Source: a virus
Lineage: Duplodnaviria > Caudoviricetes
Length of the DNA stretch: 64,000 bases
Reading direction: 5' to 3' (one strand)
Virus record (IMG/VR): IMGVR_UViG_3300027754_000037
Positions 8,161 through 51,877 of the stretch are shown in pieces. The stretch's first letter is position 1; the number at the start of each line of letters is the position of its first letter. Under the pieces are notes generated by a model. The model made no database searches. It was not told the origin of the DNA and worked only from the letters and a program-made list of their open reading frames with translations. A program made the position numbers and the translations under genes.

Positions 8161-8284
8161 TTAAGGGGGCGACTCATGGTCAAAGAAATCGCCACGCTGG
8201 TCCTGATGCTCTTCACGGGCACAGGACCAAGTCCTAGTCTACATTACCCAAGCGAATCTGGGTCAATCGCTAGTCTCTAATTAC

Positions 8285-8320
8285 AGCCAGAGAGGGCCAC
8301 AGCCTTCTCTGGCTTTTTTT
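8285..8320 (+). terminator. Rho-independent terminator
   Basis: AGCCAGAGAGG-loop-CCTTCTCTGGCT followed by a T-run. Confidence 0.75.
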
Positions 8321-8366
8321 GCAATTTTTAGGACACTTTACCCACCCCAAACAAAAGGAGATTCAA

Positions 8367-9038
8367 ATGAACCAGATCAAGAACCTGACACCTCATGCGA
8401 TAACTTTGGTGCAAGGAGACACCCAAGTCACCATCCCGCCAAGCGGGACCGTGGCCCGTGTATCTACTTTTCCCGGCAGCTTGCTCGAAAGCTCCCTGCC
8501 TGTCGAAGTGTGGTCCCCTATCACTTTTGGGGAAGTGGTGGATCTGCCTCCCCCCGAAGAAGGGGTAATTTTACTGGTGTCCCACCTTGTGGCTAGTGCA
8601 GCCAAGAGGGCGGATGTTTACAGTCCCGCTTTAGCGTTTGCCCACTCCCGCCCCAACGATGGGACTGTGCGGGGGGAAAAAGGAGAGGTCGTGGGTGTCA
8701 CCCGCCTCGTGCGAAGTAGCCAACAGCAACAACCCAAGGAGAATGGAATGAATAAGCTAGAAAACAGAGTGTTTAAGTATTCCCTCATCCAAAGAGGAAT
8801 TAGTCTCCCACTAACCTCAAGTGAGTGGGAGAATTTGAGGAGAAGCTATGAAAGTGAACACCCGTATAGGGTTGATACGAGTTCCAGAACTTGGGGCTCC
8901 GGGGATTATGAGGAGACAACCCTTATTAGTAACATTTTCATTGATACTATTGATGGGGTTGAGTTAATTGCGACTCTCAGGTGTTTTTCAAAGGAAAAAA
9001 TAGAGGATAGGATAAATAGGCAAGAGGCAGGATTTTAA
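8367..9038 (+). CDS. NLTPH-family protein, copy 2, fused in frame to a second ORF (internal RBS and ATG at 8748)
   Basis: First ~120 aa closely match 7819..8160; no stop; AAGGAG-N6-ATG at 8736-8750. Confidence 0.65.
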   Translation: MNQIKNLTPHAITLVQGDTQVTIPPSGTVARVSTFPGSLLESSLPVEVWSPITFGEVVDLPPPEEGVILLVSHLVASAAKRADVYSPALAFAHSRPNDGTVRGEKGEVVGVTRLVRSSQQQQPKENGMNKLENRVFKYSLIQRGISLPLTSSEWENLRRSYESEHPYRVDTSSRTWGSGDYEETTLISNIFIDTIDGVELIATLRCFSKEKIEDRINRQEAGF

Positions 9039-13255: not shown

Positions 13256-13720
13256 ATGGGATGTGACATTAATATTCATCTGGAATATGTGGACAGCAGG
13301 GGTTCCTTAGAATATTTTGCAGAGATCAATCTTTTAAGGAACTATGATATGTTTGGGATTATGGCTGGTGTGCGTGGTGGAGATTCCCTTTATGATCCCA
13401 AGGGATTGCCTTCTGATCCATCTCACAGGGTGATTGAGTGCTGTACCTATTATGTTGCGGTAAATCCTCTTGATGCATCTCCAGAATCATCTGAGACAGA
13501 AATGCTTGCCACGGCCCGTTATTTTGGGAGTGGAAGATTGTACAATCCAGACCTTCATAACTTTTCTTGGCTTAGTCTTAAAGAATACAAGAATGTGCTC
13601 AAGGCATATTCCAAGAAGTATGGCAAGCCCAATGTTACTTGGGAATCTATTCTCATATCCATGAAGTTTTTTAAGAAGAGAGGATTCAAGCCTCGTCTGG
13701 TTTTCTGGTTTGAAGGCTAG
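13256..13720 (+). CDS. Conserved phage hypothetical (MGCDI-start type)
   Basis: MGCDINIHLE...RNYDMFGIMAGVRG...PKGLPSD...LHNFSWL...RLVFWF; the start region is triplicated upstream. Confidence 0.7.
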   Translation: MGCDINIHLEYVDSRGSLEYFAEINLLRNYDMFGIMAGVRGGDSLYDPKGLPSDPSHRVIECCTYYVAVNPLDASPESSETEMLATARYFGSGRLYNPDLHNFSWLSLKEYKNVLKAYSKKYGKPNVTWESILISMKFFKKRGFKPRLVFWFEG

Positions 13721-15066
13721 TAAAGAGTCCAATTCCTTATTTTTTCCATTTTTTCTATCTTATCATCTAATGTGATAGCATCCACAGCGTGGTGGAAAAG
13801 TATGGTTTTCCTGTATTCTTCTTGTTTCTCTCCAGCGTGAATCTGCCATTTTTGTGGAATCAATTCATAGTTAATCTTATGTTTTTCCTCACGGATGAGG
13901 GATTGGTCGAAAAACGGATATCTCGCAATCATTTCAGGCATTCTGCCATCATATTCCTCCAGAATCTCATTCCATCTCTTGTGGATCATCTCATAGAAAG
14001 CGATAACTATATCTGATTTAGATTTTTTATACATGAGGACACCGGCGTTGAGTAGAGGGGTGTCATTTTCGGAGTATTCGTGTGGGTAGTAGATATCACG
14101 ATCTTGTTCTTCCATGAAGCGTATCAATTTTTTCCATTCTTGTAGTCGATTGGGGAAGAATTGAACATCGCAATCGCTCCAGAAGATATATCGGTGGTGG
14201 GAATTACCTGATTGGACTGTCTTGAATACTTTGAGCATGTTTTCGAGTTTCATTTTGATGCAGTAGTTGTAGGTGTCGGATTTGAATTTGATTTCGGGTT
14301 TATATCCACGGGGAATTTGGTAGCTGATGTGCATGATGTTCTGTTTTTGCACACCTGCCTCTTGGAGGCTTGTTTTCCAGCTTTGTGTGAGTGTTCTGTA
14401 GTTGTCTGCTGCGCTTGATCCGAAGATGACTGAGTCCATTAAGAGTGGAATTCTTTTGATTTTGAGGTCTTTTCTATTGCTGAAGTAGAGCATGGCGACT
14501 CTTTCGTAGATGTATGCAGCGGTTCTGGAGGGGTCATCGACTTTGATTTTGAAGTCGTACCCATGTTTCTTGTGCATTTCTTGGAAGGTTTTTCTGAAGT
14601 TATTGACGAAGTCGATAAAGACTGTTTTGTGGCAGACGAAGTTGTTTGCCCAGAGTGTATCGTCGTTGGTGAGTGGTATTCCCATGATATTGGATAGGTC
14701 TTTCATGTAGGGTTCTATTGTTTGGTGGTAGGAGTATGTCCATTTGAGCCAATGGTTTTTGAAAAAGTCATGTGTTGGTGCTGCTGCTAGGACTGTGTCG
14801 GGTTTTAGGAGGTTCTTGATGGATTCTAGGTTTTCTAGTCCTATTAAGTCGTGGTATTTATCGTTGAAGTTATGGGTGAGAGTTCCGATATATTCTGGAC
14901 AATTGCTGAATGTTTCAGGGTCTTGGAGGTAGAACCTGTTTTCAGCTATGTCGTTGGTGTTTGGGACGGGTAGATTTAGCTTGGACAGGTCTGTTTTTTC
15001 TAGGAATTCTAAGTCTGGAATCTTTTTGAGTGAATCTTCGTTATGTCCCAAGATGAATATTTTCAT
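13717..15066 (-). CDS. Two-domain glycosyltransferase (N-terminal DUF4422/GT111-like + C-terminal GT-A), WbbM-like architecture
   Basis: N-domain ends WANNFVCHKTVF...RTAAYIYERVAMLYF; C-domain has WSDCDVQF (DxD), LNAGVL and FDQS. Confidence 0.55.
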   Translation of the reverse strand: MKIFILGHNEDSLKKIPDLEFLEKTDLSKLNLPVPNTNDIAENRFYLQDPETFSNCPEYIGTLTHNFNDKYHDLIGLENLESIKNLLKPDTVLAAAPTHDFFKNHWLKWTYSYHQTIEPYMKDLSNIMGIPLTNDDTLWANNFVCHKTVFIDFVNNFRKTFQEMHKKHGYDFKIKVDDPSRTAAYIYERVAMLYFSNRKDLKIKRIPLLMDSVIFGSSAADNYRTLTQSWKTSLQEAGVQKQNIMHISYQIPRGYKPEIKFKSDTYNYCIKMKLENMLKVFKTVQSGNSHHRYIFWSDCDVQFFPNRLQEWKKLIRFMEEQDRDIYYPHEYSENDTPLLNAGVLMYKKSKSDIVIAFYEMIHKRWNEILEEYDGRMPEMIARYPFFDQSLIREEKHKINYELIPQKWQIHAGEKQEEYRKTILFHHAVDAITLDDKIEKMEKIRNWTLY

Positions 15067-15785
15067 AGGGTATAATTTTCGTCCTTGTATAGAAAGTCTA
15101 GGCAACCTGCGAGTTGCAATCCGGGTTTTCCTTGGAATTTTGGTGGTTTGGTGTTGAGATTTTCATGCCACCAGTCTGGGTTGAGGATGTGTTCCATATA
15201 TCCTTTGAGGCAGGCTTCGTGGGTGAAGATGCCGGGGCTTTGGATGTGGTTCCAGAGGTTTTTGATGATGAACTGTGCTGTATCGTGAAGGTCCACATCG
15301 ATGAATATGGTGTGGAATGGTTTGATGTTATTGGGGAGTGTTTTTTCGATTAGTCCAGAGATGATGATGCATTGTTTTTCTACTTTGAACCATTTGAGGT
15401 TTTCTTGAACTTTCTTTATGGAGCAAGAGTATTGGTTCTTGGTGAATTCTGCGATGGATTGGAGTTCTGGGTCGTAGGTTTCGTAGGAGGCTTCATGAGG
15501 AAGTCCTGTGAATGAGTCGAAGATATAGTATTTTTTTTCTGTGAGTTGTGCTACTTTTGCAAGTTTGGCGCTCATGCCACCCTCGAAGCAACCGAATTCC
15601 GCAATATCGCCGGGGATGTGGTGTGTTTTTAGGATATGGTGTGAGATGTAGAGAGCATCATAGACATAGTGGGCGCAGGGCAGGGTTTTTTGGACGGTGT
15701 GGAAATAGCCTGCTAGAGATGTCCTGATGTTTTTTTTATCTGGACCTTTTTCGGTTGCTAGGTTGATGAATTCATATTCTGTCAT
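15063..15785 (-). CDS. TylF/MycF-family O-methyltransferase
   Basis: PGDIAEFGCFEGG, FDSFTGLP, IFIDVDL; ATGA-coupled to the GT gene. Confidence 0.75.
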   Translation of the reverse strand: MTEYEFINLATEKGPDKKNIRTSLAGYFHTVQKTLPCAHYVYDALYISHHILKTHHIPGDIAEFGCFEGGMSAKLAKVAQLTEKKYYIFDSFTGLPHEASYETYDPELQSIAEFTKNQYSCSIKKVQENLKWFKVEKQCIIISGLIEKTLPNNIKPFHTIFIDVDLHDTAQFIIKNLWNHIQSPGIFTHEACLKGYMEHILNPDWWHENLNTKPPKFQGKPGLQLAGCLDFLYKDENYTL

Positions 15786-15827
15786 TTTGATCCCCGAGAG
15801 TTATAGATAGTTTATTCAGGGGGAAAT

Positions 15828-16166
15828 ATGAAAAAGATCGACATTAATTACATACGGTATTTGAGTGGTGTGATCAGCGAGGCTGCTTACATGGGGGATG
15901 GTTTAGCAGCGCCAGCGGAGAAGTTTAACCTGACGAATCCTATGGTTGGCGGGATGAAGGTTGATCCCAAGAAGATGCACATGGATTTCCACAATTGGCT
16001 TCAGGTGCAGGACAAGAACGACTATGATCTTGCGCAACTGTTTGATGGGTTAGCTCACACGAAGATCATGGAAAAGTTTCTGGGCGAGTACAAGGTTCCT
16101 GAGAATTGGGCTGGTGGGCAATTCAAGGCTACGAAGGGAATGGGGAAGCAGCAGTATATTTCGTGA
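15828..16166 (+). CDS. hypothetical protein (LSGVISE N-terminal motif)
   Basis: MKKIDINYIRYLSGVISE. Confidence 0.6.
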   Translation: MKKIDINYIRYLSGVISEAAYMGDGLAAPAEKFNLTNPMVGGMKVDPKKMHMDFHNWLQVQDKNDYDLAQLFDGLAHTKIMEKFLGEYKVPENWAGGQFKATKGMGKQQYIS

Positions 16167-16239
16167 TTAATGTAGAAAAAAATTTATTAGCGTATACCGC
16201 TAGAGAGTGTTTGAGTTTGGATTCTTTGAGAAAATAAAT

Positions 16240-17142
16240 ATGGAAAAATCAGCATTAAATTTCCGTGAATTCATGCGTTTAGACGAGATCATGGACATTG
16301 CGTCTGCTGACACGAGTGGAATTGTTTTGCAGCGCAGCGGAAACAGTTACATATACGATTTTGAACATAATGGAGAGAGTTACAAGGTTGAAATGGAGAA
16401 TTCGGACTATCCATATGAAGACATGAAGGAATTCAACCCAACTTATGTCATTGCTTTTGAAGGTCCGAATGACATGGATTTGACTGGTACTGCTGGAATG
16501 TCAGCGACTATTATTTATCGTGCCATGTTATTGGCAATCAAGAAGCTTTTAGAGACTACTGAGGTCAACTCTTTGGAATTTGCACCTGCTGCTCCAAGGA
16601 TGTTGCCGATGTACGACATATTTTACAGAAAGTACCTGCTGCCCGACCCTCCTAGAGGGCAAGGTTTTGTGCGTGTGAGGCAGACCCTTTATGTCAGGAG
16701 TTCGCATCTTGATGACAAGATGAATCAAAAAGCAACTGGAGACCAAGAAGTTTTCCGGCAAAATATGGCAAGTGCAGATAAAAAGGTAAGGGCTAGAATT
16801 GATGATATGGATGACATCAGAAAGAAAAAGAGATTTATAGACAAGATTAACAATCCTGTAGATTCTGGGTTCTATTATTGGATAACTTTAAAAATCGGTA
16901 CTCCTAATTTACAAGGTGATAAATCCAATCATCCTGTATTGATTGCTGTGAACCACAACAAGACAGACCGCTGGGCTTATGATGACAGCATCAGGCAACA
17001 AGGAATTTATTTGCGTGATAATAACGGGAAATTCATCGCAATCATGATTAATCGACCCATGAGTCTTGCTTGGATTAAGGACTTCGTGCGTCCTGCGACA
17101 GAAGAGGAAATTCGTAGTGTGAAAGCGATGCCAAGATCCTAG
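16240..17142 (+). CDS. Paralog 1 of a 3-member family; putative internal head protein
   Basis: NFREFMRLDE N-terminus; core FEGP...TG.AG.SA..IY..MLLAIKKLLET. Confidence 0.6.
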   Translation: MEKSALNFREFMRLDEIMDIASADTSGIVLQRSGNSYIYDFEHNGESYKVEMENSDYPYEDMKEFNPTYVIAFEGPNDMDLTGTAGMSATIIYRAMLLAIKKLLETTEVNSLEFAPAAPRMLPMYDIFYRKYLLPDPPRGQGFVRVRQTLYVRSSHLDDKMNQKATGDQEVFRQNMASADKKVRARIDDMDDIRKKKRFIDKINNPVDSGFYYWITLKIGTPNLQGDKSNHPVLIAVNHNKTDRWAYDDSIRQQGIYLRDNNGKFIAIMINRPMSLAWIKDFVRPATEEEIRSVKAMPRS

Positions 17143-17153
17143 TTATTTCTTAA

Positions 17154-17186
17154 AAAGTAGCAGCGACCAGAAATCGCTGCTACTTT
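17154..17186. terminator. Bidirectional terminator
   Basis: AAAGTAGCAGCGA / TCGCTGCTACTTT between convergent genes. Confidence 0.8.
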
Positions 17187-17200
17187 AATTTAATTTCAAA

Positions 17201-17449
17201 TTAGGCAACAAACTTCATGGGACAAAGCTTGCAATCCATCTTCTTCATCTTGCCAAACTCCTCCATGTTGTCAGCAACCTTTTTGCCACAAGAGAGACAC
17301 ATCACGGCATCGCCATGAGGAACCCATCCTTTAGCGATCTGAGCTTTAATCTGGTCGTCTGTAATCGTGTCAGGCTTCGCCTTAGCGACAGTTGCCAACT
17401 CGTCACGAATCAATTCCTTGTGCTTTGTAAAAATTTCTTCAGCGTTCAT
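17201..17449 (-). CDS. small protein with two CxxC motifs
   Basis: CLSC and CKLC; GGAGG RBS. Confidence 0.65.
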   Translation of the reverse strand: MNAEEIFTKHKELIRDELATVAKAKPDTITDDQIKAQIAKGWVPHGDAVMCLSCGKKVADNMEEFGKMKKMDCKLCPMKFVA

Positions 17450-17491
17450 TTTACCTCCATAGGGTGCTTTTTTATTGTTTAAGGGATATTA

Positions 17492-19630
17492 TTAGAACAG
17501 CCTTTGGTTGCAGACTGTGATGGCGGGCACATAAGCGCCGTTTACAGCCGAGCAGATGCCCAGAGACTGTTGGATATTGGAGCATTGGTTATAGAAGAAC
17601 TTAGTCTTGGCGCATGTGCAGGAGTTTGTGCCAATTTTGCAAACCTTTCCAACGCTTGTTCCGCAACCCTTGTTGGAGCAGCTTTTGATGACTTCTGGGC
17701 TTACGAAGCTCTTGACGAAAGAGTTGGCAATCAGCTTCATGTAGGTTTCGGTGACTTCGGCCTCATTTTCTTTGGCGAAGACTAGAACATACAGTTCTTT
17801 TCTACCGCTGAGTCCTGTCAGAACATGAGTATCGCCATAACCGTCATCATCAACAGGATCTGGAACATTTTGGGTGATTCCAGCTTCGATGCCGTCAACG
17901 ATGATGAGTTGATTGACTGTGGGATCGCCACCTGCGGAGCTAGACTTGTAGAAAGCTGCGAATTCAAAGCCATTGACCTTAAATTCAAAGCTTCCTATCA
18001 AGCATTCTCCATTGCCATCCTGCTCGGTGCCGCCGTAGATGTTGAATTCATTAATTGTCATGTTGTTTGCTGCGAGGACAAACAGTCCGGGGAACATGTT
18101 GGTGAAGTAGCGACTGCCGTTACCGAAGTAGTCGTTGGCGTTTTTGATTCTACCATCGCTGGGCATATAGTAGTAGTTGTACTTGTCGCTAGCATAATCA
18201 TAGTACATGTAGCCAACGCTCGAATCGTCACACACGATTACATTGCTGTGAGTAAAAGGAATGCAATTTTCTTCATCCAAGCTGCCGCCATTAATTGTTG
18301 CATAAGTTTGAGTATAGTTGGTGTTGAAGTACATTCCAGAATCCCAGACATTACAGCCGTCAGCTACACCGACACGGTAGAAATTGTAGCGTATGGGTTG
18401 ACCAATCAGTCCACCGTTTGCGGTCAGTTTCATGCAACCATAAGAAATACTGTTGTTGCCGAAGTTGAAGTCGGTGGTGAGGACCTTACCACCATATTGG
18501 GTGAAGTATCCAGCCACAAAGACTGTGTCGTCAGACTTTACAGTCAGGGCCATAACACCGTCATTTGCTCCGATGTTTGATCCGAAGCTAACATCACGGC
18601 TTCCATCGCTATTCAGACGGACAAGTCTATTGCAGAGCTTTCCGTCCAGCGTGACGAAAAAACCACCGACAAGAATCTTGCCTGATGATTGCAGCGCAAC
18701 TGCTTGTACTCCCGCCCACCAGTCGCCATCAAATCCAGTTGTACCAAGGTTAAATGTTGCATCAAAGGTTCCATCATCTTCAAGTCTGCAAAGGCCGTTA
18801 TCGATATTTATAGTTTTGTAGGTACTCCATTCGCCACCAACAACTACTTTGCCGTCTTTTTGGATGGCGATACTGTAGACATCATTATCAAAGCCCGCTC
18901 CAACTGAGAAGCCGCCATCTTCTGTGCCGTTTGCATTTATTTTACAGATTCTGTTAGTAAAACTTCCACCAATAAAATACTCACCATCAGATGTTGGTGT
19001 GATGCACCATACACTATCGTAACCTACGGCATCTACATTGTCGGCAAAGCCTTCATCAAGAACTCCCAATCCATCTAATTTTGCAAGACCGGGGCTGCTA
19101 TATCCATCAAACTCGGCAAACTCACCTCCGACGATCACGGAGTCATCTATATCAACCGTAAGGGCATGGACATAATCATCGAAGCCACCGTTGTCGAAAT
19201 CTGTGTCATGGGTTCCATTTGTGGTCAGTCTAGCGATGTAATAAACAGATGTGGAATTAAGGTCTACAAAATTACCGCCAACGATTACTTTTCCCGAGGA
19301 CTGTAGGGCTAGAGCATAGATGGTGCCGTAGAATTTTGCAGATGTGTTGAAAGTGGTATCTGCGGTTCCATCAGCGTTGAATCTTTTGACTACTGAGTAA
19401 TTATCTTCTTCGCCGCCGTCGAAGAGACCTGAGTCACCAGCAACAAGGACCTTGCCATCGCTTTGAACTGTGATGCAGGTTGCGAATCCGATGTAGTCGA
19501 AATCAACTACAGTTCCCGGCATTTCAAAGTAATCGGGTTCATCTGTGAAATTGAAGCGACTGGACACTAAGCCTGCCACCTGCACACTTGAGGCGCTGGC
19601 TCCCAAGACAACTTGTTCTAACTGAGTCAT
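17492..19630 (-). CDS. Delta-60-repeat beta-propeller protein with Cys-rich C-terminus (probable virion protein)
   Basis: Repeats QSDGKVLVAG, QSSGKVIVGG, QKDGKVVVGG, QSSGKILVGG and RL..DG..D.xF; GGAG RBS; TATAAATA upstream. Confidence 0.8.
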   Translation of the reverse strand: MTQLEQVVLGASASSVQVAGLVSSRFNFTDEPDYFEMPGTVVDFDYIGFATCITVQSDGKVLVAGDSGLFDGGEEDNYSVVKRFNADGTADTTFNTSAKFYGTIYALALQSSGKVIVGGNFVDLNSTSVYYIARLTTNGTHDTDFDNGGFDDYVHALTVDIDDSVIVGGEFAEFDGYSSPGLAKLDGLGVLDEGFADNVDAVGYDSVWCITPTSDGEYFIGGSFTNRICKINANGTEDGGFSVGAGFDNDVYSIAIQKDGKVVVGGEWSTYKTINIDNGLCRLEDDGTFDATFNLGTTGFDGDWWAGVQAVALQSSGKILVGGFFVTLDGKLCNRLVRLNSDGSRDVSFGSNIGANDGVMALTVKSDDTVFVAGYFTQYGGKVLTTDFNFGNNSISYGCMKLTANGGLIGQPIRYNFYRVGVADGCNVWDSGMYFNTNYTQTYATINGGSLDEENCIPFTHSNVIVCDDSSVGYMYYDYASDKYNYYYMPSDGRIKNANDYFGNGSRYFTNMFPGLFVLAANNMTINEFNIYGGTEQDGNGECLIGSFEFKVNGFEFAAFYKSSSAGGDPTVNQLIIVDGIEAGITQNVPDPVDDDGYGDTHVLTGLSGRKELYVLVFAKENEAEVTETYMKLIANSFVKSFVSPEVIKSCSNKGCGTSVGKVCKIGTNSCTCAKTKFFYNQCSNIQQSLGICSAVNGAYVPAITVCNQRLF

Positions 19631-19653
19631 GATTTTCTCCTTTACGGTTGTAT

Positions 19654-19661
19654 TATTTATA
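19654..19661 (-). promoter_or_regulatory. T4-type late-promoter-like TATAAATA
   Basis: Exact T4 late consensus ~25 nt upstream of the delta-60 gene; the region is AT-rich, so chance matches are possible. Confidence 0.45.
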
Positions 19662-19939
19662 CAAACTAGATACAAAAAGATATTTATATGGCAATAATTT
19701 TTAAATGGCAGACTGAACTATTTATGATTCATGCTTTTTCATTTGACACAAAAATTTTTCATGTTAGTCTATCTCTCGAAGGATGTGCGAAATGAAAATC
19801 ACCAAAAGCCAGAAATTTAACGCCGTGTTATTTATTGTTTGGGTTGTATTTGTTTTATTTCTGACTCACAAGATGCGTGGACTCATGGAAGAAAACACCA
19901 GATTGCAGATTATATACAGTAAATACAAATAAGGAAGCC

Positions 19940-20632
19940 ATGAATTTCAGGGAATTTTTAGAAACTGAAGAGATGTTGGGTGAGTTTACAGACCCGAGGG
20001 CTGAGGACATCAGCCAGATTGAGTTTGAGCCTGTAGCACCTGAATTTAAAAAAACCAAAAATCCTATGTTTTCTTATAAGTTTGAATTTGGTGGTAACAA
20101 ATTTTCGGTTATTTTTGAGGAAAGAAAGTTAGACTCCTACATGATGAAGCCATTTGAGATTGTAGGTTATGCCATTTCATTTTATGGACCCCAACAAACA
20201 AAATCCACAGGCATGGCTGGATCTAGTGCAGGAATGATTTATAAAAAATTGATGTTGGCAGTAAGAAAATGGCTTGAAACCCACAGGGTTGATTATCTAT
20301 CTTTCCGTGGAGAGGAGTCCAAGATGGACCTTGTCTATGATTCTTTTTACACGAGGTTTTTGCAACAAGATTTCATCAGAACATCAGCTAACACCTACAT
20401 GAAGAAGTCAGTTTTGCAGGAATTTTTGCAAAAGCATCCTAGTGCCAACCAGACGATTCAAAAGAACATTAAATATACTGAAAAAGAACAAGAGATTTAT
20501 CTGGCAAGCGTGCGTGAGAAGGCTGCTAGGGATCGCAAACTTGCTAGAAAGCCGAAAGATGTAAGTTCATTCGGTCAAAAAGTGACTGGTTTGCTACCAT
20601 CATTTGGTAGGGCAACACCTGAACCCGTTTAA
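19940..20632 (+). CDS. Paralog 2 of the 3-member family
   Basis: MNFREFLETEE...EFTDP; core FYGP...TG.AG.SA.MIYKKLMLAVRKWLET. Confidence 0.65.
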   Translation: MNFREFLETEEMLGEFTDPRAEDISQIEFEPVAPEFKKTKNPMFSYKFEFGGNKFSVIFEERKLDSYMMKPFEIVGYAISFYGPQQTKSTGMAGSSAGMIYKKLMLAVRKWLETHRVDYLSFRGEESKMDLVYDSFYTRFLQQDFIRTSANTYMKKSVLQEFLQKHPSANQTIQKNIKYTEKEQEIYLASVREKAARDRKLARKPKDVSSFGQKVTGLLPSFGRATPEPV

Positions 20633-20644
20633 CTATATTAACCT

Positions 20645-21739
20645 ATGCATTATCTCATCGTTGGCACAGGTTTTTATGGCAGCGTTATTGCCCGTCAACT
20701 TGCAGAGCAAGGTGACAAAGTCACGATCATAGACAAAAGAAACCACATCGGTGGCAACTGTTACACCGAAGTGATTGATGGCATACCGGTCCACAAGTAT
20801 GGACCTCATGCTTTTCACACCAATTCTGAGCGTGTCTGGGAATTTTGCAACAAGTTTGTTGAATTCAATGGATTTCGCTTGCAGGTCAAAGTTGACTACA
20901 AGGGCAAGATATATTCTTTTCCTGTAAACATGATGACTTTGAGTCAACTTTACGGTATCACTCGTCCTTCAGAGGCGAAAAAGGCACTTGCTTCATCAAG
21001 AGTGAAGGTGAGGAATGTAAAAACATTTGAAGATCATTGTTTAAACACAATAGGGCGAGAGCTTTACGAGATTTTCTTTTATGGTTACACTCACAAGCAA
21101 TGGAACATGCATCCTAATCTCTTGGGAGCATCGGTAGCCAAGCGTATTCCTGTGCGATTGGAGTACAATGATTATTATTTTACGGACAAGTATCAAGGAA
21201 TTCCAATTGGAGGTTATACTCGGCTTTTTGAGAACATGCTTGATCATAAGAACATCAAGGTTTTGTTGGATGTTGATTTTTTTGAAAATCGTAAGGACTT
21301 TGAGCGCAAGTTCAAGAAAATAATTTACAGCGGAAAGATTGACGAGCTTTTGGAATACAAGCATGGAATGTTGGCTTACAGAAGTTTGAAATTTGATTTC
21401 AAAAAAGTTAGTGGTACTTATCAGGGCAATTCGATCATTAATTATACGGAATACAAAGTTCCTCATACTAGAATCGTGGAGCACAAATACTTTAGTGGGA
21501 TTGAAAACGGTAAGTCTGTGATTTCTATTGAGTATCCAGATGATTACTCCTTGGGCAAGACACCGTTTTATCCTATTCCGGCAGAGGAGAATCAAAAGTT
21601 ATATCAGAAGTACAGGGATGAGATTTTGGGGCAGGACAAGTATTTGATTGGTGGCAGGTTGGGTCGATACCAATATTTGAATATGGATCAAGTAATTGGG
21701 ATGGCTTTGATTGATTTTGATTCAAAATTGGCTAAATAA
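20645..21739 (+). CDS. glf: UDP-galactopyranose mutase
   Basis: FAD motif IVGTGFYGSVIA; RNHIGGNCY, HKYGPHAFHTN, YFTDKYQGIP, TRIVEHKYF, GRLGRYQYLNMDQ. Confidence 0.93.
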   Translation: MHYLIVGTGFYGSVIARQLAEQGDKVTIIDKRNHIGGNCYTEVIDGIPVHKYGPHAFHTNSERVWEFCNKFVEFNGFRLQVKVDYKGKIYSFPVNMMTLSQLYGITRPSEAKKALASSRVKVRNVKTFEDHCLNTIGRELYEIFFYGYTHKQWNMHPNLLGASVAKRIPVRLEYNDYYFTDKYQGIPIGGYTRLFENMLDHKNIKVLLDVDFFENRKDFERKFKKIIYSGKIDELLEYKHGMLAYRSLKFDFKKVSGTYQGNSIINYTEYKVPHTRIVEHKYFSGIENGKSVISIEYPDDYSLGKTPFYPIPAEENQKLYQKYRDEILGQDKYLIGGRLGRYQYLNMDQVIGMALIDFDSKLAK

Positions 21740-21742
21740 TGC

Positions 21743-22354
21743 ATGATTACATTTCAAGAATATATGCAAATTGTCGAATTCACCGATCCATCACAAGCTG
21801 ACATAAGTGATATTAATCTTATCAAGCAAGAATGGGGATATTATTACGATTGGATTTACAACAACAACAAATACAGCGTTGGTCTTGAAAAAATACAAGA
21901 CCCCAACCCGTCTTGGCTAGGATTACCGGATGGAAGCGAGATTGAAGCGAATGGTTATATTGTGGAATTTGTGGGTCCCAAGGGAACAAGACCTACTGAT
22001 TTATCTGGAGGTACAAGTCTTGTAATTTATAAGCAAATGATGTTGGTAATTAGAAAGCTTATTGAAACCGAACATGTTGATTACTTGGCTTTTTCGGGCC
22101 AGACTGGAAAGATGGATCGACTTTATGACAGGTTTGTAAAGACATTTCTTGGAGATCGATATACTTGGTATAATTATCAAATTTTGATGAATAATACATT
22201 CCTTGATCAGATAGCGCTTAAGCATCCTTCTAGTGCAAACTCGGTTGCAGAAAAGTTGTCACAAACAAAAAAAATAAGGCAACAAAATTTGATGTTTCAA
22301 AAACAACAAGACGACAAATCAAGAATCCAAAAAAGAACTAGTTTTGCCGTATAG
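21743..22354 (+). CDS. Paralog 3 of the 3-member family
   Basis: MITFQEYMQIVEFTDP; core FVGP...IYKQMMLVIRKLIET.HVDYL.F. Confidence 0.65.
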   Translation: MITFQEYMQIVEFTDPSQADISDINLIKQEWGYYYDWIYNNNKYSVGLEKIQDPNPSWLGLPDGSEIEANGYIVEFVGPKGTRPTDLSGGTSLVIYKQMMLVIRKLIETEHVDYLAFSGQTGKMDRLYDRFVKTFLGDRYTWYNYQILMNNTFLDQIALKHPSSANSVAEKLSQTKKIRQQNLMFQKQQDDKSRIQKRTSFAV

Positions 22355-24385: not shown

Positions 24386-24423
24386 AAAAAAGCCCCGGCA
24401 ATTTTTGGCCGGGGCTTTTTTTT
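24386..24423. terminator. Rho-independent terminator
   Basis: A-run, GCCCCGGC / GCCGGGGC stem, T-run. Confidence 0.8.
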
Positions 24424-25544: not shown

Positions 25545-26173
25545 TCCTCAATAAGATCTGCAATTATCTTGTTGGGTAGTTCTAGAACTATGTCTGCAAG
25601 TTTTTGCAGGTCTATTCGATTGTTGTATGGACTATCAAAATAGGATCTGTGTGCTGAGTTTGCAACCATTAATTCATTATCTTCTAACATGACTGCTCCA
25701 AAACAGGCATGAGCACAACTGATATTTTCATGTTCTGGTGGGATGTTCTCATCACCCATTTGGGACATGAGTTCATTTTGTATTTTTTCTGCCGTTTCTT
25801 TGTTTGTGTCAATTCCCCGAAGGTAACTGATAGCCCATTTTTTGAAGATGGGATTTTGAATGATTTGCAAACAGCAAAGAATGGCAAATGTTACTCTGTG
25901 GCTTCTTGTAATTGGTGGTTGTAGTGCGATTTTGGTTGTGGTGAGTTTGGTTGTCTCGAAATAGAATCCAATTTTTTTTGGATTTTCAGGAACTGCTTCC
26001 CATATTTTGGGTTTTTGAATTCCTTCATAGGCTGGATGCATAAATAAAGCAGTCGGGATGTGATCATAAACGGAAAAGGGAAAGTTGGGATTGGTTTCTT
26101 CGTGTGTGATATCGGTTCCCCACTCGACACCTCTTTCGGTCATGTCATTGCAATCAGTAACAAGGTAATACAT
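25541..26173 (-). CDS. hypothetical phage protein
   Basis: MYYLVTD...VEWG...H; AAGGGA SD upstream; its start codon overlaps that of the divergent gene. Confidence 0.6.
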   Translation of the reverse strand: MYYLVTDCNDMTERGVEWGTDITHEETNPNFPFSVYDHIPTALFMHPAYEGIQKPKIWEAVPENPKKIGFYFETTKLTTTKIALQPPITRSHRVTFAILCCLQIIQNPIFKKWAISYLRGIDTNKETAEKIQNELMSQMGDENIPPEHENISCAHACFGAVMLEDNELMVANSAHRSYFDSPYNNRIDLQKLADIVLELPNKIIADLIED

Positions 26174-26798
26174 GAGAATCATCCCTTCTGCTCTTGAAAT
26201 AAGATGGTTTTGTGCAACTCTTTTTCTGTTTATTATAATAGTTTGTCTTGGTTTTAATGATAAAAAACATCCAGCACAGTACGAGATTGCTTTCAAAACT
26301 TTGACTAGACAACCCGATGATATCACTTGTGGTCCAGCAAGTACCGTGATGGTCCTGAGCCATTATGGGAAAAATATTTCTATTGATGAAGTCAAGAAAA
26401 TAACAAAAACTGTGTGGTATAGCAGAAACGGCGTTGATTTCGGTATGACTGCGCCTCAGTTGATACGAGAAGCCTTGGATTATTTTGGTTTTTTTTCTAA
26501 GTTAAATTATGGTGGTCTGGATACTCTGAAGCATTTTGTGAGTTTGGGAAAACCTTGTATAGTTTTGATTCGCAGCGATGAGTACGCATGGCATTATGTT
26601 GTGGTCACGGGATTTAGTGATGGAAAAATAAAATTTGCGAATCCAACCCAAGGACAAATGGAAATTGTCTCTGAGGAGACTTTTGTAAGGGCTTGGAGAT
26701 GGACTGGCGATTTATCTGGTCGTGACTGTGGTTGGTGGATAGCATTCTGGTTGAGAACTATGGAAATCTATCCAAACTCTTTCGTACATTTGGAATGA
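26172..26798 (+). CDS. Peptidase C39-like protein with N-terminal TM/signal
   Basis: Q..DITCGPAS (Cys), WHYVVVTG (His), FANP (Asn). Confidence 0.75.
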   Translation: MRIIPSALEIRWFCATLFLFIIIVCLGFNDKKHPAQYEIAFKTLTRQPDDITCGPASTVMVLSHYGKNISIDEVKKITKTVWYSRNGVDFGMTAPQLIREALDYFGFFSKLNYGGLDTLKHFVSLGKPCIVLIRSDEYAWHYVVVTGFSDGKIKFANPTQGQMEIVSEETFVRAWRWTGDLSGRDCGWWIAFWLRTMEIYPNSFVHLE

Positions 26799-28303: not shown

Positions 28304-29155
28304 ATGAAGGTTTTATACATTTTGAACGAGTCATGTTTTTACATGCGACTTGCGTGGTTCAGTCTTACCACTCTGAGGAAATACAATCCCGACATACCTG
28401 TTGAAATACTTTTTATCTGCGACAACAAAAGAGAGAACCGCTTTCTGGGCAGGCTTGAAAAGCTTGATATGGGGATTCCTTGGTTCAATAAATCGATGTT
28501 TTTTGATGAATGCGAGCATCTGGGGGTAAAACTTAATATTGTTGAAAACATCGAAATGGGAGAGGAAGAAGGCTTTCATTCAGCACAAAGGAAAGAATTT
28601 GTAAGGGTTGATGGCGAACAAATACTTCTCCTAGATGCAGACACTTTTATTTTCGATGATATATCATGCATCTTTGATAATCTGAGATATTATGATATAA
28701 TTATAGATCAAAACGAATGGAGTAATTTTGGCAACAGGTTCCCCTTCATGGGGAAATACCAAAGGCCATTTAATTCAGGAGTGGTTCTCTTCGGTAAAGG
28801 TTTTTTGCAAGAGTACGGAAAAAGAGTTTTTGACTTATGTCTTGAAATAAAACATGAAAGACACGCTGTTGGAAAGTGGCTTGGAGAATACGAATCAAAC
28901 AAAGATATAGTAATTCCAAAATTAAGTAGGGAAGAGTTCGCATTGACGCTGTTTATTCTTGAAAATAAAATTAATTTTCGATTTTTCAATAGGAGTGAAG
29001 TGCAAACTGGAAGGTTGACTGGAAGAACACGAATATATCACACTATGACTCAATATTGGCCAGCAGCATGGCAAAAATTCTTTAAAAATGGCGTTTTTAA
29101 ACCTCCTTTTTTTTATAGGCCAAAATCTTTCATAAAAATCAATAGACATCAATAG
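28304..29155 (+). CDS. GT-A glycosyltransferase (GT8-like)
   Basis: LLLDADTF (DxD) and FNSGVVLF. Confidence 0.7.
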   Translation: MKVLYILNESCFYMRLAWFSLTTLRKYNPDIPVEILFICDNKRENRFLGRLEKLDMGIPWFNKSMFFDECEHLGVKLNIVENIEMGEEEGFHSAQRKEFVRVDGEQILLLDADTFIFDDISCIFDNLRYYDIIIDQNEWSNFGNRFPFMGKYQRPFNSGVVLFGKGFLQEYGKRVFDLCLEIKHERHAVGKWLGEYESNKDIVIPKLSREEFALTLFILENKINFRFFNRSEVQTGRLTGRTRIYHTMTQYWPAAWQKFFKNGVFKPPFFYRPKSFIKINRHQ

Positions 29156-30069: not shown

Positions 30070-30681
30070 TCAAGCACTTTCAATAAAAGAGTATTTGACT
30101 TTGACCTCAATCAGCATCTCAGGCATACCGATATGTGTGCAAATTTTATGTTTTTTAGCTTCTTTGGCCGTCAAGAAAATGTCAGCGTGACTTTTTTCGT
30201 GAATTAATTTGTCAAAGTAGCCTTCCTTTTGACCGCAATTTCTGGCCATGATTTGGAAAATTAATTTATTGAGTCGGTCGCATTCCTTGGCATCGGCTTT
30301 GATTTCCTCGTTTTTACCAACCGTGTTGGTTGCTGCATCGTGAAGCATCAAAGTTGCAATTTCACTCATGAATCTCTTTTGGCCTGTGCTGAAGAGGATT
30401 GCTCCAGCGCTCATAGCTTTACCTGTACAGATGGTGTAAACCGGAAGGCTACACTTTTCAACATGGGATATCATATCGAGACAACCGTAAACGCTACCGC
30501 CGTATGAGTCGATTAAAATTGGCACGAAGGGCTGTCCTGTTTGCTGTGCATCTTCCATTTCCTTACGAAAATCTTTGACGGCAATTTCCGTGAATTGCTG
30601 AACCAAAACCACCACAGGGTTTTCAATCAATTCGCTATGTTTGGAACGAATGCGTGGATCAACGATTAATTTTTTAAACAT
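30070..30681 (-). CDS. clpP: ClpP-family serine protease
   Basis: IDSYGGSV, CTGKAMSAGAIL (Ser), LMLHD (His), DIFLTAKEAKK. Confidence 0.85.
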   Translation of the reverse strand: MFKKLIVDPRIRSKHSELIENPVVVLVQQFTEIAVKDFRKEMEDAQQTGQPFVPILIDSYGGSVYGCLDMISHVEKCSLPVYTICTGKAMSAGAILFSTGQKRFMSEIATLMLHDAATNTVGKNEEIKADAKECDRLNKLIFQIMARNCGQKEGYFDKLIHEKSHADIFLTAKEAKKHKICTHIGMPEMLIEVKVKYSFIESA

Positions 30682-31703: not shown

Positions 31704-32564
31704 TCAAGACCTTTTCTTGAGAATGTTGGAAGCCAATTCTGACATGTAGTGTGCAGTAGGAGTCTGTATCAGTTTGCTTATTGTTTCAATTGGATCGCCA
31801 AAACAAATCCTTTTTGGCATGGGATAGGTGTACATCGACTTGTTGAAAACTGGTGGCATGCCATGATCATAGTCGATGAACGGGGTGATTTTACTGTCAA
31901 TCATCGTTGATGATAGACCGTATGTGCCAAAAATATAAGCTTGATCGAAGACATCAGACAAATTCAAAGCCCATGCTAATTTGACAGTTTCTTTCCAAAT
32001 TGTTCTTTTGTTAATCAACTGGCGCAAAATCAAGGTTTCGGCAACCTGCAAAACCCTGTTGAAAAATTCAAATGTGAATTCCTTGAAACACATGATTCCC
32101 CCCAAGGGGACCCAATTTTTTAAGTAATATTCTTTGTTGTTTGGCATCACTTCCCAAAAATCGCCCGCCATTTTTTCTGCGTTTTGGAATGTAAAAGTAG
32201 CGTCAGGAGCGAAGATGCAGGCTCTGAATTGATTTTCAGGAAATGGCTGAAAACCTTGTTGACTTATCAAGACATGAGGATCGATAATCGTAAATTCATT
32301 TTTGATCTTGTTATTTTGTATGCAATGAATTAAAGAATATAATTGATTTAGTTTTACAAATCCCCTTTTATGGCCGATATTATTGTGTAAAAATTTATTG
32401 TTGTGATTGTTGATGTTTACGGGGAAAAAATACCCCGGATCATCCGTTTCTGCCACGGATATAATAAGATTATTTGCTTCACCCTGAGCAATAAAACTCT
32501 CTATCATCAATTCATATTGCCATTGATAATAGGTTGTGTTTTCGCTGCTGACAAAATACTCCAT
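31704..32564 (-). CDS. Glycosyltransferase resembling the plant peptidyl-serine galactosyltransferase / Hyp arabinosyltransferase family (GT96/GT95-like)
   Basis: N-terminal SSENTTYYQWQYELMIESF..QG pattern; IIDP at the DxD position. Confidence 0.5.
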   Translation of the reverse strand: MEYFVSSENTTYYQWQYELMIESFIAQGEANNLIISVAETDDPGYFFPVNINNHNNKFLHNNIGHKRGFVKLNQLYSLIHCIQNNKIKNEFTIIDPHVLISQQGFQPFPENQFRACIFAPDATFTFQNAEKMAGDFWEVMPNNKEYYLKNWVPLGGIMCFKEFTFEFFNRVLQVAETLILRQLINKRTIWKETVKLAWALNLSDVFDQAYIFGTYGLSSTMIDSKITPFIDYDHGMPPVFNKSMYTYPMPKRICFGDPIETISKLIQTPTAHYMSELASNILKKRS

Positions 32565-50317: not shown

Positions 50318-51877
50318 ATGGCAATAAACAACAACTGTCCCTTCGACTTAGCGCCTTATACTCAGTCGCAGGTGATCACTACTCCTAATATTTTTAATTT
50401 AAATTATACAAACCAAGACTTCTGGAGTATGAAGACGAGGTTAATTGAATTTATTCAACAAAAATTCAGCACAGATTTTTCTGATTTTGTCGAATCCTCT
50501 CTTGCCATGATGCTGATTGAAAACTGGTCGTTTTTGGCTGATACTTTAAGCTTCAAAATGGATCAGATAGCCAATGAAATTTTTATAGACACAGTTACTG
50601 AAACAGAGAATGCATTTAGATTGGCCAAGTTGGTGGGTTTCAATCCGCAACCGCCAATTGGAGCCCGTGCTATGTTCACGGCAACTCTTAACAATCCTCT
50701 TAGCTACGATGTGGTTGTCCCAAGCCCATTTCAAATTAAATTACCTGCTGCTGGGGCAGTAGCATATATTGAATTATATCAAGCAGATTCAGAGAATAAT
50801 CCCCTATTCGATGAAGATATCATAATTCCATCTGGAAATATTGTTAACGCCAGCGTCATCGGAATAGAAGGCAGAACAAGAACTTTATCTGCTGGTGGAA
50901 CAGGAGCAGTTGGACAAACTTTGCAACTTGGTACTTCACCAGTAATCTTCGATTCAATCAGAGTTTATGTTGATGGCGTTCTGTGGGACCAAGTTGAATA
51001 CTTCACAGACTCACAACCAAGGCGTGAATATAGAATCGAATATGATAGCAATTATGTCGCTTATATAATATTTGGAAATAATAGAACTGGTCTAATTCCA
51101 AGTATTGGAAGTTCAATAGAAGCGGTTTACCGCACGGGTGGTGGTCCTATCGGCAATATAGTCAGCGGTTCAGTCAATTCTCAGACCGTGATAACCGTAC
51201 CCGGATTGCAATATCCTGTTCCAGTCTCATTTAGAAATTACACAAAAGGTGAGTTTGGATTTTCTGGAGATACGATTGATGATATTCGTTTAAAATTACC
51301 TGCTTGGCAAAGAGCTCAGAATCGTGCTGTAACAGGATTGGATTACAAAACACTAACAGATCAATTTGCAACGCCATACCAAGGACAAATTGGCAAATCT
51401 ACGGCTGTTCTTAGGAATTATGGTTGTGCTGGCAATATTGTCGATTTATATATTTTGGCTTTAGATGGGCAAAGCAATCTTCAACTTGCTTCAGACGACC
51501 TTAAGAATAGCTTGCAGGTTTACATCAACGATAAAAAAATGCTGACAGATTTCGTTTGTATTCGTGATGGTCATGTGCTTTCGGTTGACATGGCGCTTGA
51601 TGTTGTACTTGATCGATTATACAGAAAATTTGAAGATGAAATTAGAACAAAGATACAAAGAAGACTGGATACTTATTTTACTATCCAAAATTGGGAATTT
51701 AATGAAAATCTTAAAGATACCGAAATTGCCAAGGTGATTTCAGACATCAAAGAAATAAGCAGACTTGATATTACTTTCACTACAAACGATCCAAACAACG
51801 GCGGTAATTTGGTTACGACGCAATTTTTCGAGATCATAAGACCAGATGTCACTACTATTGGATTCACATACGAATAA
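50318..51877 (+). CDS. Baseplate wedge gp6 / baseplate J-like
   Basis: DFSDFVESS, LAKLVGF.P, YRTGGG..GN, RAVT..DY. Confidence 0.85.
   Translation: MAINNNCPFDLAPYTQSQVITTPNIFNLNYTNQDFWSMKTRLIEFIQQKFSTDFSDFVESSLAMMLIENWSFLADTLSFKMDQIANEIFIDTVTETENAFRLAKLVGFNPQPPIGARAMFTATLNNPLSYDVVVPSPFQIKLPAAGAVAYIELYQADSENNPLFDEDIIIPSGNIVNASVIGIEGRTRTLSAGGTGAVGQTLQLGTSPVIFDSIRVYVDGVLWDQVEYFTDSQPRREYRIEYDSNYVAYIIFGNNRTGLIPSIGSSIEAVYRTGGGPIGNIVSGSVNSQTVITVPGLQYPVPVSFRNYTKGEFGFSGDTIDDIRLKLPAWQRAQNRAVTGLDYKTLTDQFATPYQGQIGKSTAVLRNYGCAGNIVDLYILALDGQSNLQLASDDLKNSLQVYINDKKMLTDFVCIRDGHVLSVDMALDVVLDRLYRKFEDEIRTKIQRRLDTYFTIQNWEFNENLKDTEIAKVISDIKEISRLDITFTTNDPNNGGNLVTTQFFEIIRPDVTTIGFTYE

Follow-up and report, generated by a model that had tools for sequence, protein, structure and literature searches.

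The stretch of DNA analysed here, called the window, is 64,000 nucleotides long and corresponds to bases 64001-128000 of a single viral record of 144,066 bp (G+C 41%), IMGVR_UViG_3300027754_000037, whose completeness is about 33% according to CheckV. It contains three genes through which the phage probably makes its own methylated galactofuranose (Galf) glycan: a gene for a two-module transferase of 449 amino acids (13717-15066, minus strand), a gene for a TylF-like methyltransferase of 240 amino acids (15063-15785, minus strand), and glf, which encodes a UDP (uridine diphosphate)-galactopyranose mutase of 364 amino acids (20645-21739, plus strand). All three, which a first-pass annotation of the same DNA had listed, are present and intact. 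That annotation also took the genes to be phage-encoded, and this is supported by a baseplate wedge/J protein at 50318-51877, which matches PHROG tail families and has its best database relative (46% identity) in the 595-kb uncultured phage LR756511.1. The terminase is matched by the one in L028, a T4-like contig in which Portal_T4 and Gp23 genes are present (contigs used for comparison are labelled L and viral records G, P0022 is a metagenomic protein, and G000:C1 is the source contig). The source is a large, tailed, uncultured phage that looks T4-like and lytic. The locus itself was not found in 50,697 phage records, neither by DNA search nor by tblastn.

The glf product matches PF03275 (E 1e-69, 234.8 bits) and has the FAD-binding (flavin adenine dinucleotide) Rossmann domain PF13450 in residues 5-71 (E 7e-22). 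It scores 333.9 bits against the NCBIfam equivalog TIGR00031, above the cut-off of 303.75, and its residues 2-357 align with Escherichia coli Glf (1I8T; E 2.9e-100) end to end and with no large gaps. Judged by these matches, the gene is an intact UDP-galactopyranose mutase gene, as initially annotated, and the assignment is secure. Compared with the orthologue in contig L004 its ratio of nonsynonymous to synonymous substitution rates (dN/dS) is 0.04, and glf, transferase and methylase are all under purifying selection, with values of 0.04-0.17. The presence of glf in phages is already known: 88 of the 50,697 phage records (0.17%) have one, mostly phages of Rhizobium (Pootjesviridae), Aeromonas, Streptococcus suis and Lactobacillus, and their products are 40-43% identical to the Glf described here. 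Their surroundings are different, however. In the two records that were inspected the neighbours of glf are DNA-metabolism genes or lysis and tail genes, unlike here, and tblastn against the phage records gave no relative of the 449-amino-acid transferase in any of the 50,697.

The transferase gene was listed as an open reading frame (ORF) at 13717-15105 on the minus strand, starting from a TTG. The ATG at 15066 is preferred, because all 15 of the 15 full-length homologues begin at that methionine, and this gives the length of 449 amino acids. A word-indexed search found 16 homologues, most of them 442-457 amino acids long and with identities of 38-97%, and when 1.84 billion cluster representatives were searched exhaustively with HMMER, 225 matched at E<=1e-3. 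Residues 1-208 and 210-446 behave as independent modules in these data, each of them also existing as a stand-alone protein of about 205-230 amino acids. The N-module (residues 1-208; 14443-15066, minus strand) is, by its structural model, GT111/DUF4422-like and a predicted Galf-transferase. The C-module (residues 209-449 plus the stop codon; 13717-14442, minus strand) is assigned to the GT-A type by its model and by a DCD motif at residues 298-300 that is invariant in 15 full-length homologues. The motif reported earlier for the N-half, NNFV.HK..F...R..AY.YERV..LYF, is real and mostly invariant among homologues; it reads NNFVCHK...R-x6-YERVAMLYF at residues 141-196, and within it N141, N142, F143, C145, H146, K147, R181, Y187, E188 and R189 do not vary. 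Over the N-module family as a whole the invariant positions are H8, E42, R44, K70, W106, N141-H146, R181, E188 and R189.

Standard domain models have very little to say about this protein. At the usual thresholds it has no match in Pfam, NCBIfam or PHROGs, and the one trace is of GT2 (E 0.055), around the DCD motif. A six-frame search of the contig for DUF4422 found none, and single-sequence Pfam scans of 64 stand-alone relatives of the N-module gave no DUF4422 match at E<=0.01 (0 of 64). Among the 16 close homologues a single one has a DUF4422 match (E 0.0045), and two have PF03407 (Nucleotid_trans) on the C-half, the better at 1.7e-5. Neither phmmer nor two profile searches of PDB sequences connected the N-module with DUF4422 or WbbM, the Galf-polymerising enzyme of Klebsiella discussed below, and a profile search of a set of 5.8 billion proteins returned family members only, with no route from the N-module to DUF4422/WbbM. 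E. coli K-12 WbbI, a Galf-transferase, was considered as a relative and rejected (hhalign E 0.39, no Pfam family).

The N-module family is mostly viral or metagenomic. Many proteins of 450-1060 amino acids carry the module at their C-terminal end, and in 37 fusions of this kind it is joined to GT8 (nine proteins), GT2, GT4 and several methyltransferase families, a repertoire known from multi-domain enzymes of glycan synthesis, WbbM among them. One of these proteins is P0022, a metagenomic protein of 1061 amino acids (L021:3933-7118) in which the N-module is joined to GT4, GT2 and Methyltransf_24; in domain content it resembles a complete assembly line for a glycan, contained in one chain. BLAST found no similarity between its methyltransferase end and the TylF-like protein of the window, so the two methylases are not shown to be of the same kind. 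When 185,579 species genomes were scanned by pattern for the GT111-like module, a single match was obtained, on a 34.6-kb contig (L014, JADLGZ010000010.1) of a metagenome-assembled genome (MAG) of the Fimbriimonadaceae. This contig may be viral DNA that was binned into the MAG. In 151 genomes of the phylum to which this bacterial hit belongs, no DUF4422 sequences were found.

The link that sequence models miss is visible in the fold. An AlphaFold2 model of the whole protein, built on an alignment of 88 rows, has a mean predicted local distance difference test score (pLDDT) of 96.4, and the N-module folded separately reaches 97.0. With Foldseek, the top PDB match of the whole protein is WbbM (6U4B; E 6.9e-12), with both domains aligned, followed by A64R (also A064R) of the chlorovirus PBCV-1; for the N-module alone 6U4B is the sole match at E<=1e-3. 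The AlphaFold comparison with WbbM that the first-pass annotation had proposed was made against 48,161 PDB representatives exhaustively. Against the N-module model, the GT111 domain of WbbM (6U4B_A residues 9-262) scores Z 14.7, with a root mean square deviation (rmsd) of 3.4 A over 198 of the module's 208 residues, and the runner-up is a GT6 enzyme at Z 9.3. In the ESM Atlas its nearest neighbours are viral clusters (TM 0.86-0.87), one of which has PF14393, the Pfam model of DUF4422, in 15% of its members. Clusters with PF14393 in all of their members follow at TM 0.73-0.75, and one of these is a 623-amino-acid DUF4422+GT8 cluster from Pseudomonadota, which has the architecture of WbbM. The N-half had been described as DUF4422-like. 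This holds for the fold, since both the GT111 domain of WbbM and DUF4422 clusters match it, and fails for the Pfam model, which gives nothing at E 10. Taken by its modelled fold, the N-module is a viral branch of GT111/DUF4422 that the sequence model fails to recognise.

The C-module is easier to place in a broad class than in a family. Its residues 209-443 match A64R (2P73) at Z 16.5, with an rmsd of 3.4 A over 199 aligned residues, and the next structural matches are the glycosyltransferase domain of LH3, mimivirus R699, GT6 enzymes and UGGT; many GT-A enzymes are matched at Z 14-16.5. Against the GT8-like partner domains of the fusion proteins there is a weak hhalign match (E 1.7e-4) across the DxD, NAGV and DQ motifs, and Pfam GT8 does not match the module. 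On the model, it is a DxD-containing GT-A domain near GT8, in a structural neighbourhood of the retaining type, and we do not call it a member of GT8. The earlier description of a GT-A C-half with a DCD motif was thus accurate, the fold matches being of this type and the motif invariant.

The methyltransferase gene lies directly upstream of the transferase gene, and its TGA stop and the ATG of the latter share bases, as ATGA, in line with the translationally coupled TylF-family methyltransferase of the first-pass annotation. The protein scores 47.8 bits against PF05711 (TylF), for which the cut-off is 23, and matches the PDB O-methyltransferases 5I10 and 4CDZ (E 1.5e-7) and NovP (E 3.5e-4). 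The glycine motif for S-adenosylmethionine (SAM) with E63, G65, G69 and G70, and the acidic motif FIDVD (F161-D165), are invariant in 22 homologues. With the sugar O-methyltransferases TylF, NovP and MycF it shares the Pfam match above cut-off, the SAM glycine motif and the acidic DVD motif; the characterised enzymes act on deoxysugars of antibiotics, whereas here the partner is a phage glycan transferase. The gene pair is kept in L004 (81% identity for the methylase and 83% for the transferase) and in L026 (52% and 50%, with an 8-bp gap). In the latter a PvuII-type endonuclease gene comes after the transferase gene. A prediction of a complex between transferase and methylase gave scores of 0.00, 0.42 and 0.00 in its runs, which speaks neither for nor against binding.

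The association with glf goes beyond this one phage. Among all the contexts that could be fetched, glf adjoins the N-module or lies less than 14 kb from it in at least five separate lineages. In the window the two genes are 5.6 kb apart, and the fully syntenic L004, with a transferase of 83% identity, has glf in the same layout. In L008, L022 and L023, which carry a GT8-like domain fused to the N-module, glf is the next gene but one, and the gene between fusion gene and glf encodes an HNH endonuclease (L008:10649-11380). In L021 glf overlaps the 3' end of the 1061-amino-acid gene for P0022 and is followed by a GT2/Branch gene. A stand-alone N-module in L024 has an adjacent, convergent glf, and in the viral records G004 and G005 glf is 13.4 kb away. 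The viral records G007 and G008, the short contig L025 and the MAG contig L014 showed no glf, and none was found in the Fimbriimonadaceae MAG genome from which L014 comes. Given that glf occurs in just 0.17% of phage records and that the lineages share 30-45% identity, such repeated adjacency is hard to ascribe to chance. It is a proxy, and the best available evidence that the N-module uses UDP-Galf.

One known counterpart is WbbM of Klebsiella pneumoniae O2a (6U4B), in which an N-terminal GT111/DUF4422 Galf-transferase is followed by a C-terminal GT8 galactopyranose-transferase. The phage protein has the same order of modules in one chain, the matching N-terminal fold, a DxD-containing GT-A C-module and a glf at hand, so that module order and folds fit the WbbM-like two-module build suggested earlier. 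Nevertheless, the two differ in several respects. Their identity is 14%, and the phage protein has neither a DUF4422 nor a GT8 match in Pfam. It has 449 residues where 570 are modelled in WbbM, and the domains are placed differently, the rmsd being 16.7 A when both are aligned together. It is also encoded by a phage and paired with a TylF methylase, with no ATP-binding cassette (ABC) transporter or priming enzymes nearby, whereas WbbM has a lipid-linked acceptor and depends on priming transferases and an ABC transporter as partners; such genes were not found in the 144-kb phage contig (about 33% of the genome). A second counterpart is the stand-alone GT111 enzyme PamA of Kingella kingae, whose gene adjoins that of PamB, a Glf (PMC12269835). 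The stand-alone N-module beside glf in L024 has the same layout; PamA, for its part, is bacterial and is recognised by DUF4422.

In the pathway that we propose, Glf, as its homology shows, converts host UDP-galactopyranose to UDP-galactofuranose. The N-module would transfer Galf, as suggested by its fold and the repeated linkage with glf, and the C-module may add a second sugar from a nucleotide sugar. The joint product of the two modules could be a disaccharide unit or a chain of alternating sugars like that of WbbM, and the TylF-type enzyme would O-methylate a sugar hydroxyl of the product, which we infer because of its family and the conserved gene pair. The polymerase activity, the methyl group that caps the chain and the glycan on the virion or the host surface, all put forward in the first-pass annotation, are inferences, and the enzyme may instead add two sugars once. 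The reading as a pathway is reasonable, and the comparative context strengthens it. That a soluble, cytoplasmic set of enzymes makes a Galf-containing glycan, with a virion protein as the favoured acceptor and a lipid-linked envelope glycan of the host as the main alternative, has in our estimate about an even chance of being right.

Several observations weigh against this pathway. The first is the arrangement of the genes: glf is 5.6 kb from the transferase gene and on the opposite strand, with five unrelated genes between them. Being on the other strand and within a separate trio, orf251-glf-orf203, of which it is the middle gene, glf is outside the transcription unit of the transferase, and the span 13717-21739 is not the single unit that it had been taken for. 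Secondly, no glf lies within 10 kb of the genes of the two closest full-length clades, at 43% and 38% identity, or within their fragmentary records. The 449-amino-acid protein has no match to Pfam DUF4422 (PF14393), even at E<=10. The T4-type late promoter motif TATAAATA is absent upstream of the TylF-transferase pair and of glf in the window, which leaves no clue to timing. The contig of 144 kb has no ABC ATPase (ABC_tran) and no initiating phosphoglycosyl transferase (Bac_transf); this absence of export and initiation genes proves little, because the contig is only about one third of the genome. The catalysis, product and acceptor of the set are predicted only.

The virion is favoured as the target on several grounds. 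No hydrophobic segment was found in Glf, transferase, methylase or orf283 (a candidate third transferase, see below), so that all enzymes of the set are soluble, no genes for export or initiation are in view, and the phage appears to be lytic and T4-like. In contig L028 the gene immediately behind that of the gp23 capsid protein encodes a methylase homologue of 40% identity (L028:8376-10729), and a glf of 61% identity is found 5.3 kb downstream; this position beside gp23 is a single case, which counts against giving it much weight. The same contig has a portal gene with an intein and a LAGLIDADG endonuclease gene nearby, and a C39 peptidase is encoded between the TylF homologue and glf. A further point is the precedent of A064R of PBCV-1 (domain 1, 2P73), a virus-encoded soluble GT-A enzyme that glycosylates the major capsid protein and heads the structural matches of the C-module. 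The likeness is in fold only; the identity is 16%, the virus infects a eukaryote, and the sugars are rhamnose, not Galf. A064R also has a methyltransferase domain that methylates the terminal sugar. Among phages, glycosylation of virion proteins by phage transferases has precedent in mycobacteriophages, according to Freeman 2023 as cited in PMC12619734. In its most specific form the proposal is that huge T4-like phages of fresh water decorate the proteins of their own virions with a methylated Galf-containing glycan, and that a branch of the GT111 fold particular to viruses, which standard domain models miss, assembles it in the cytoplasm of the host; we regard this as tentative and, on balance, doubtful.

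The strongest alternative to a virion target is that the envelope of the host is remodelled. From the inner face of the membrane, and in the manner of WbbM, the enzymes would then modify undecaprenyl-linked intermediates of O-antigen, capsule or wall glycan, which host exporters would carry outward. The one GT111 enzyme characterised so far, WbbM, makes an O-antigen that is lipid-linked (PMC12269835). The fused relatives of the N-module share their kinds of modules with multi-domain polysaccharide synthases, including GT4, GT2 and the terminal methyltransferase in P0022, and two further GT2 genes are present on the contig. Set against this, the 144 kb yielded neither an initiating transferase nor a flippase or ABC transporter, the proteins of the set have no membrane anchor, and the phage is apparently lytic and T4-like, whereas seroconversion in its classic form belongs to temperate phages. 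These points are not decisive, because host enzymes could serve. We consider envelope remodelling unlikely, and the same holds for the outcome expected from it, namely a cell surface altered during infection that leads to superinfection exclusion or to protection of the infected cell.

Less probable still is that there is no single pathway: glf would supply different transferases encoded by the phage, orf283 or those of the GT2 genes, and the TylF-transferase pair would use other sugars. The placement of glf in a separate trio on the opposite strand would agree with this, as would the clades at 43% and 38% identity without a nearby glf, and L028, which has a TylF homologue and a glf and no homologue of the 449-amino-acid protein within 10 kb. 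The GT111 fold and the repeated adjacency of N-module and glf in other lineages argue in the other direction, and make separate pathways quite improbable in our view. No role on DNA is known for a sugar O-methylase, and the least likely of the alternatives, to which we give very little credence, is that UDP-Galf and the transferases serve to glycosylate a modified base, blocking host nucleases. This has been proposed for Rhizobium phages of the Pootjesviridae, where Glf would supply UDP-Galf for glycosylated 5-hydroxycytosine and the DNA of phage RL38J1 bears Gal-Glc-Glc (2026; PMC13326640), and in Lactobacillus phage ATCCB glf is beside a thymidylate-synthase gene and an annotated beta-glucosyltransferase gene; a gene of the thymidylate-synthase family, which makes 5-substituted pyrimidines, is however found neither in the contig nor in four related viral records with the N-module (one of them 88% complete), and the candidate DNA transferases of PMC13326640 match GT-B-type templates, not GT111.

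Whatever the acceptor, the searches reveal a sizeable, mostly viral and metagenomic sister group of GT111, with 225 cluster representatives at E<=1e-3 that go without Pfam annotation. Its N-module is mixed with other transferase and methylase modules and repeatedly travels with glf, and so offers a route to what large phages do with galactofuranose. Galf is not known to occur in mammals, and because of this it is of interest as an antigen and marker. Should the proposed virion target be true, glycosylation of phage particles would extend beyond mycobacteriophages, and the particle would be the first Galf-glycosylated one from a phage and only the second functional context known for GT111. A target in the host envelope or in DNA would mean a new type of enzyme for those strategies.

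Other glycan genes are scattered over the contig. The 283-amino-acid orf283 (28304-29155, plus strand, likely start at Met14, 28343) encodes a GT8-like GT-A protein with DAD and NSGV motifs. In the ESM Atlas it has a feature score of 0.98 to viral clusters with GT8 or Nucleotid_trans, its hhalign match to GT8-like domains is weak (E 2.8e-4, probability 41%), and in L009 and L010 a homologue is 4.6 kb from an N-module homologue. As a putative third transferase of the set it is a lead, not a proof. Outside the window there are two genes of the GT2 family, at G000:C1:15034-16161 (plus strand) and 8176-8982 (minus strand). This brings the transferase modules of the phage to at least five, spread along 80 kb. 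An ORF of 286 amino acids at 31704-32564 had no sequence match in Pfam or the PDB.

Between the methylase gene and glf lie genes for proteins of 112 (15828-16166, plus strand), 311 (16207-17142, plus strand), 82 (17201-17449, minus strand), 727 (17492-19675, minus strand) and 251 amino acids (orf251; 19877-20632, plus strand, likely start 19940), and glf is followed by a gene for a 203-amino-acid protein (orf203; 21743-22354, plus strand). The 311-, 251- and 203-amino-acid proteins are paralogues with about 30% mutual identity that surround glf, and L004 has four copies. The two shorter ones are near DUF6934-like phage clusters in the ESM Atlas and have a weakly GNAT-like shape; we see no reason to include the paralogues in the pathway. 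The 727-amino-acid protein has at least four DUF5122/delta-60 beta-propeller repeats and is rich in cysteine over its last 70 residues. Its real start is probably Met16, and its gene is kept beside the glycan genes in L004. The T4 late-promoter-like motif TATAAATA occurs six times in the window, twice on the strand of this gene, at 19654-19661 and 19681-19688. Hairpins rich in G+C and followed by T runs, resembling strong terminators, are found at 17154-17186 (plus strand, 13 pairs) and 24386-24421 (minus strand, 14 pairs) and delimit gene blocks around the glycan genes. Further along the window encodes a Peptidase_C39 family protein (26172-26798, plus strand; E 4e-11) and a ClpP-family protease (30070-30681, minus strand; E 6e-22).

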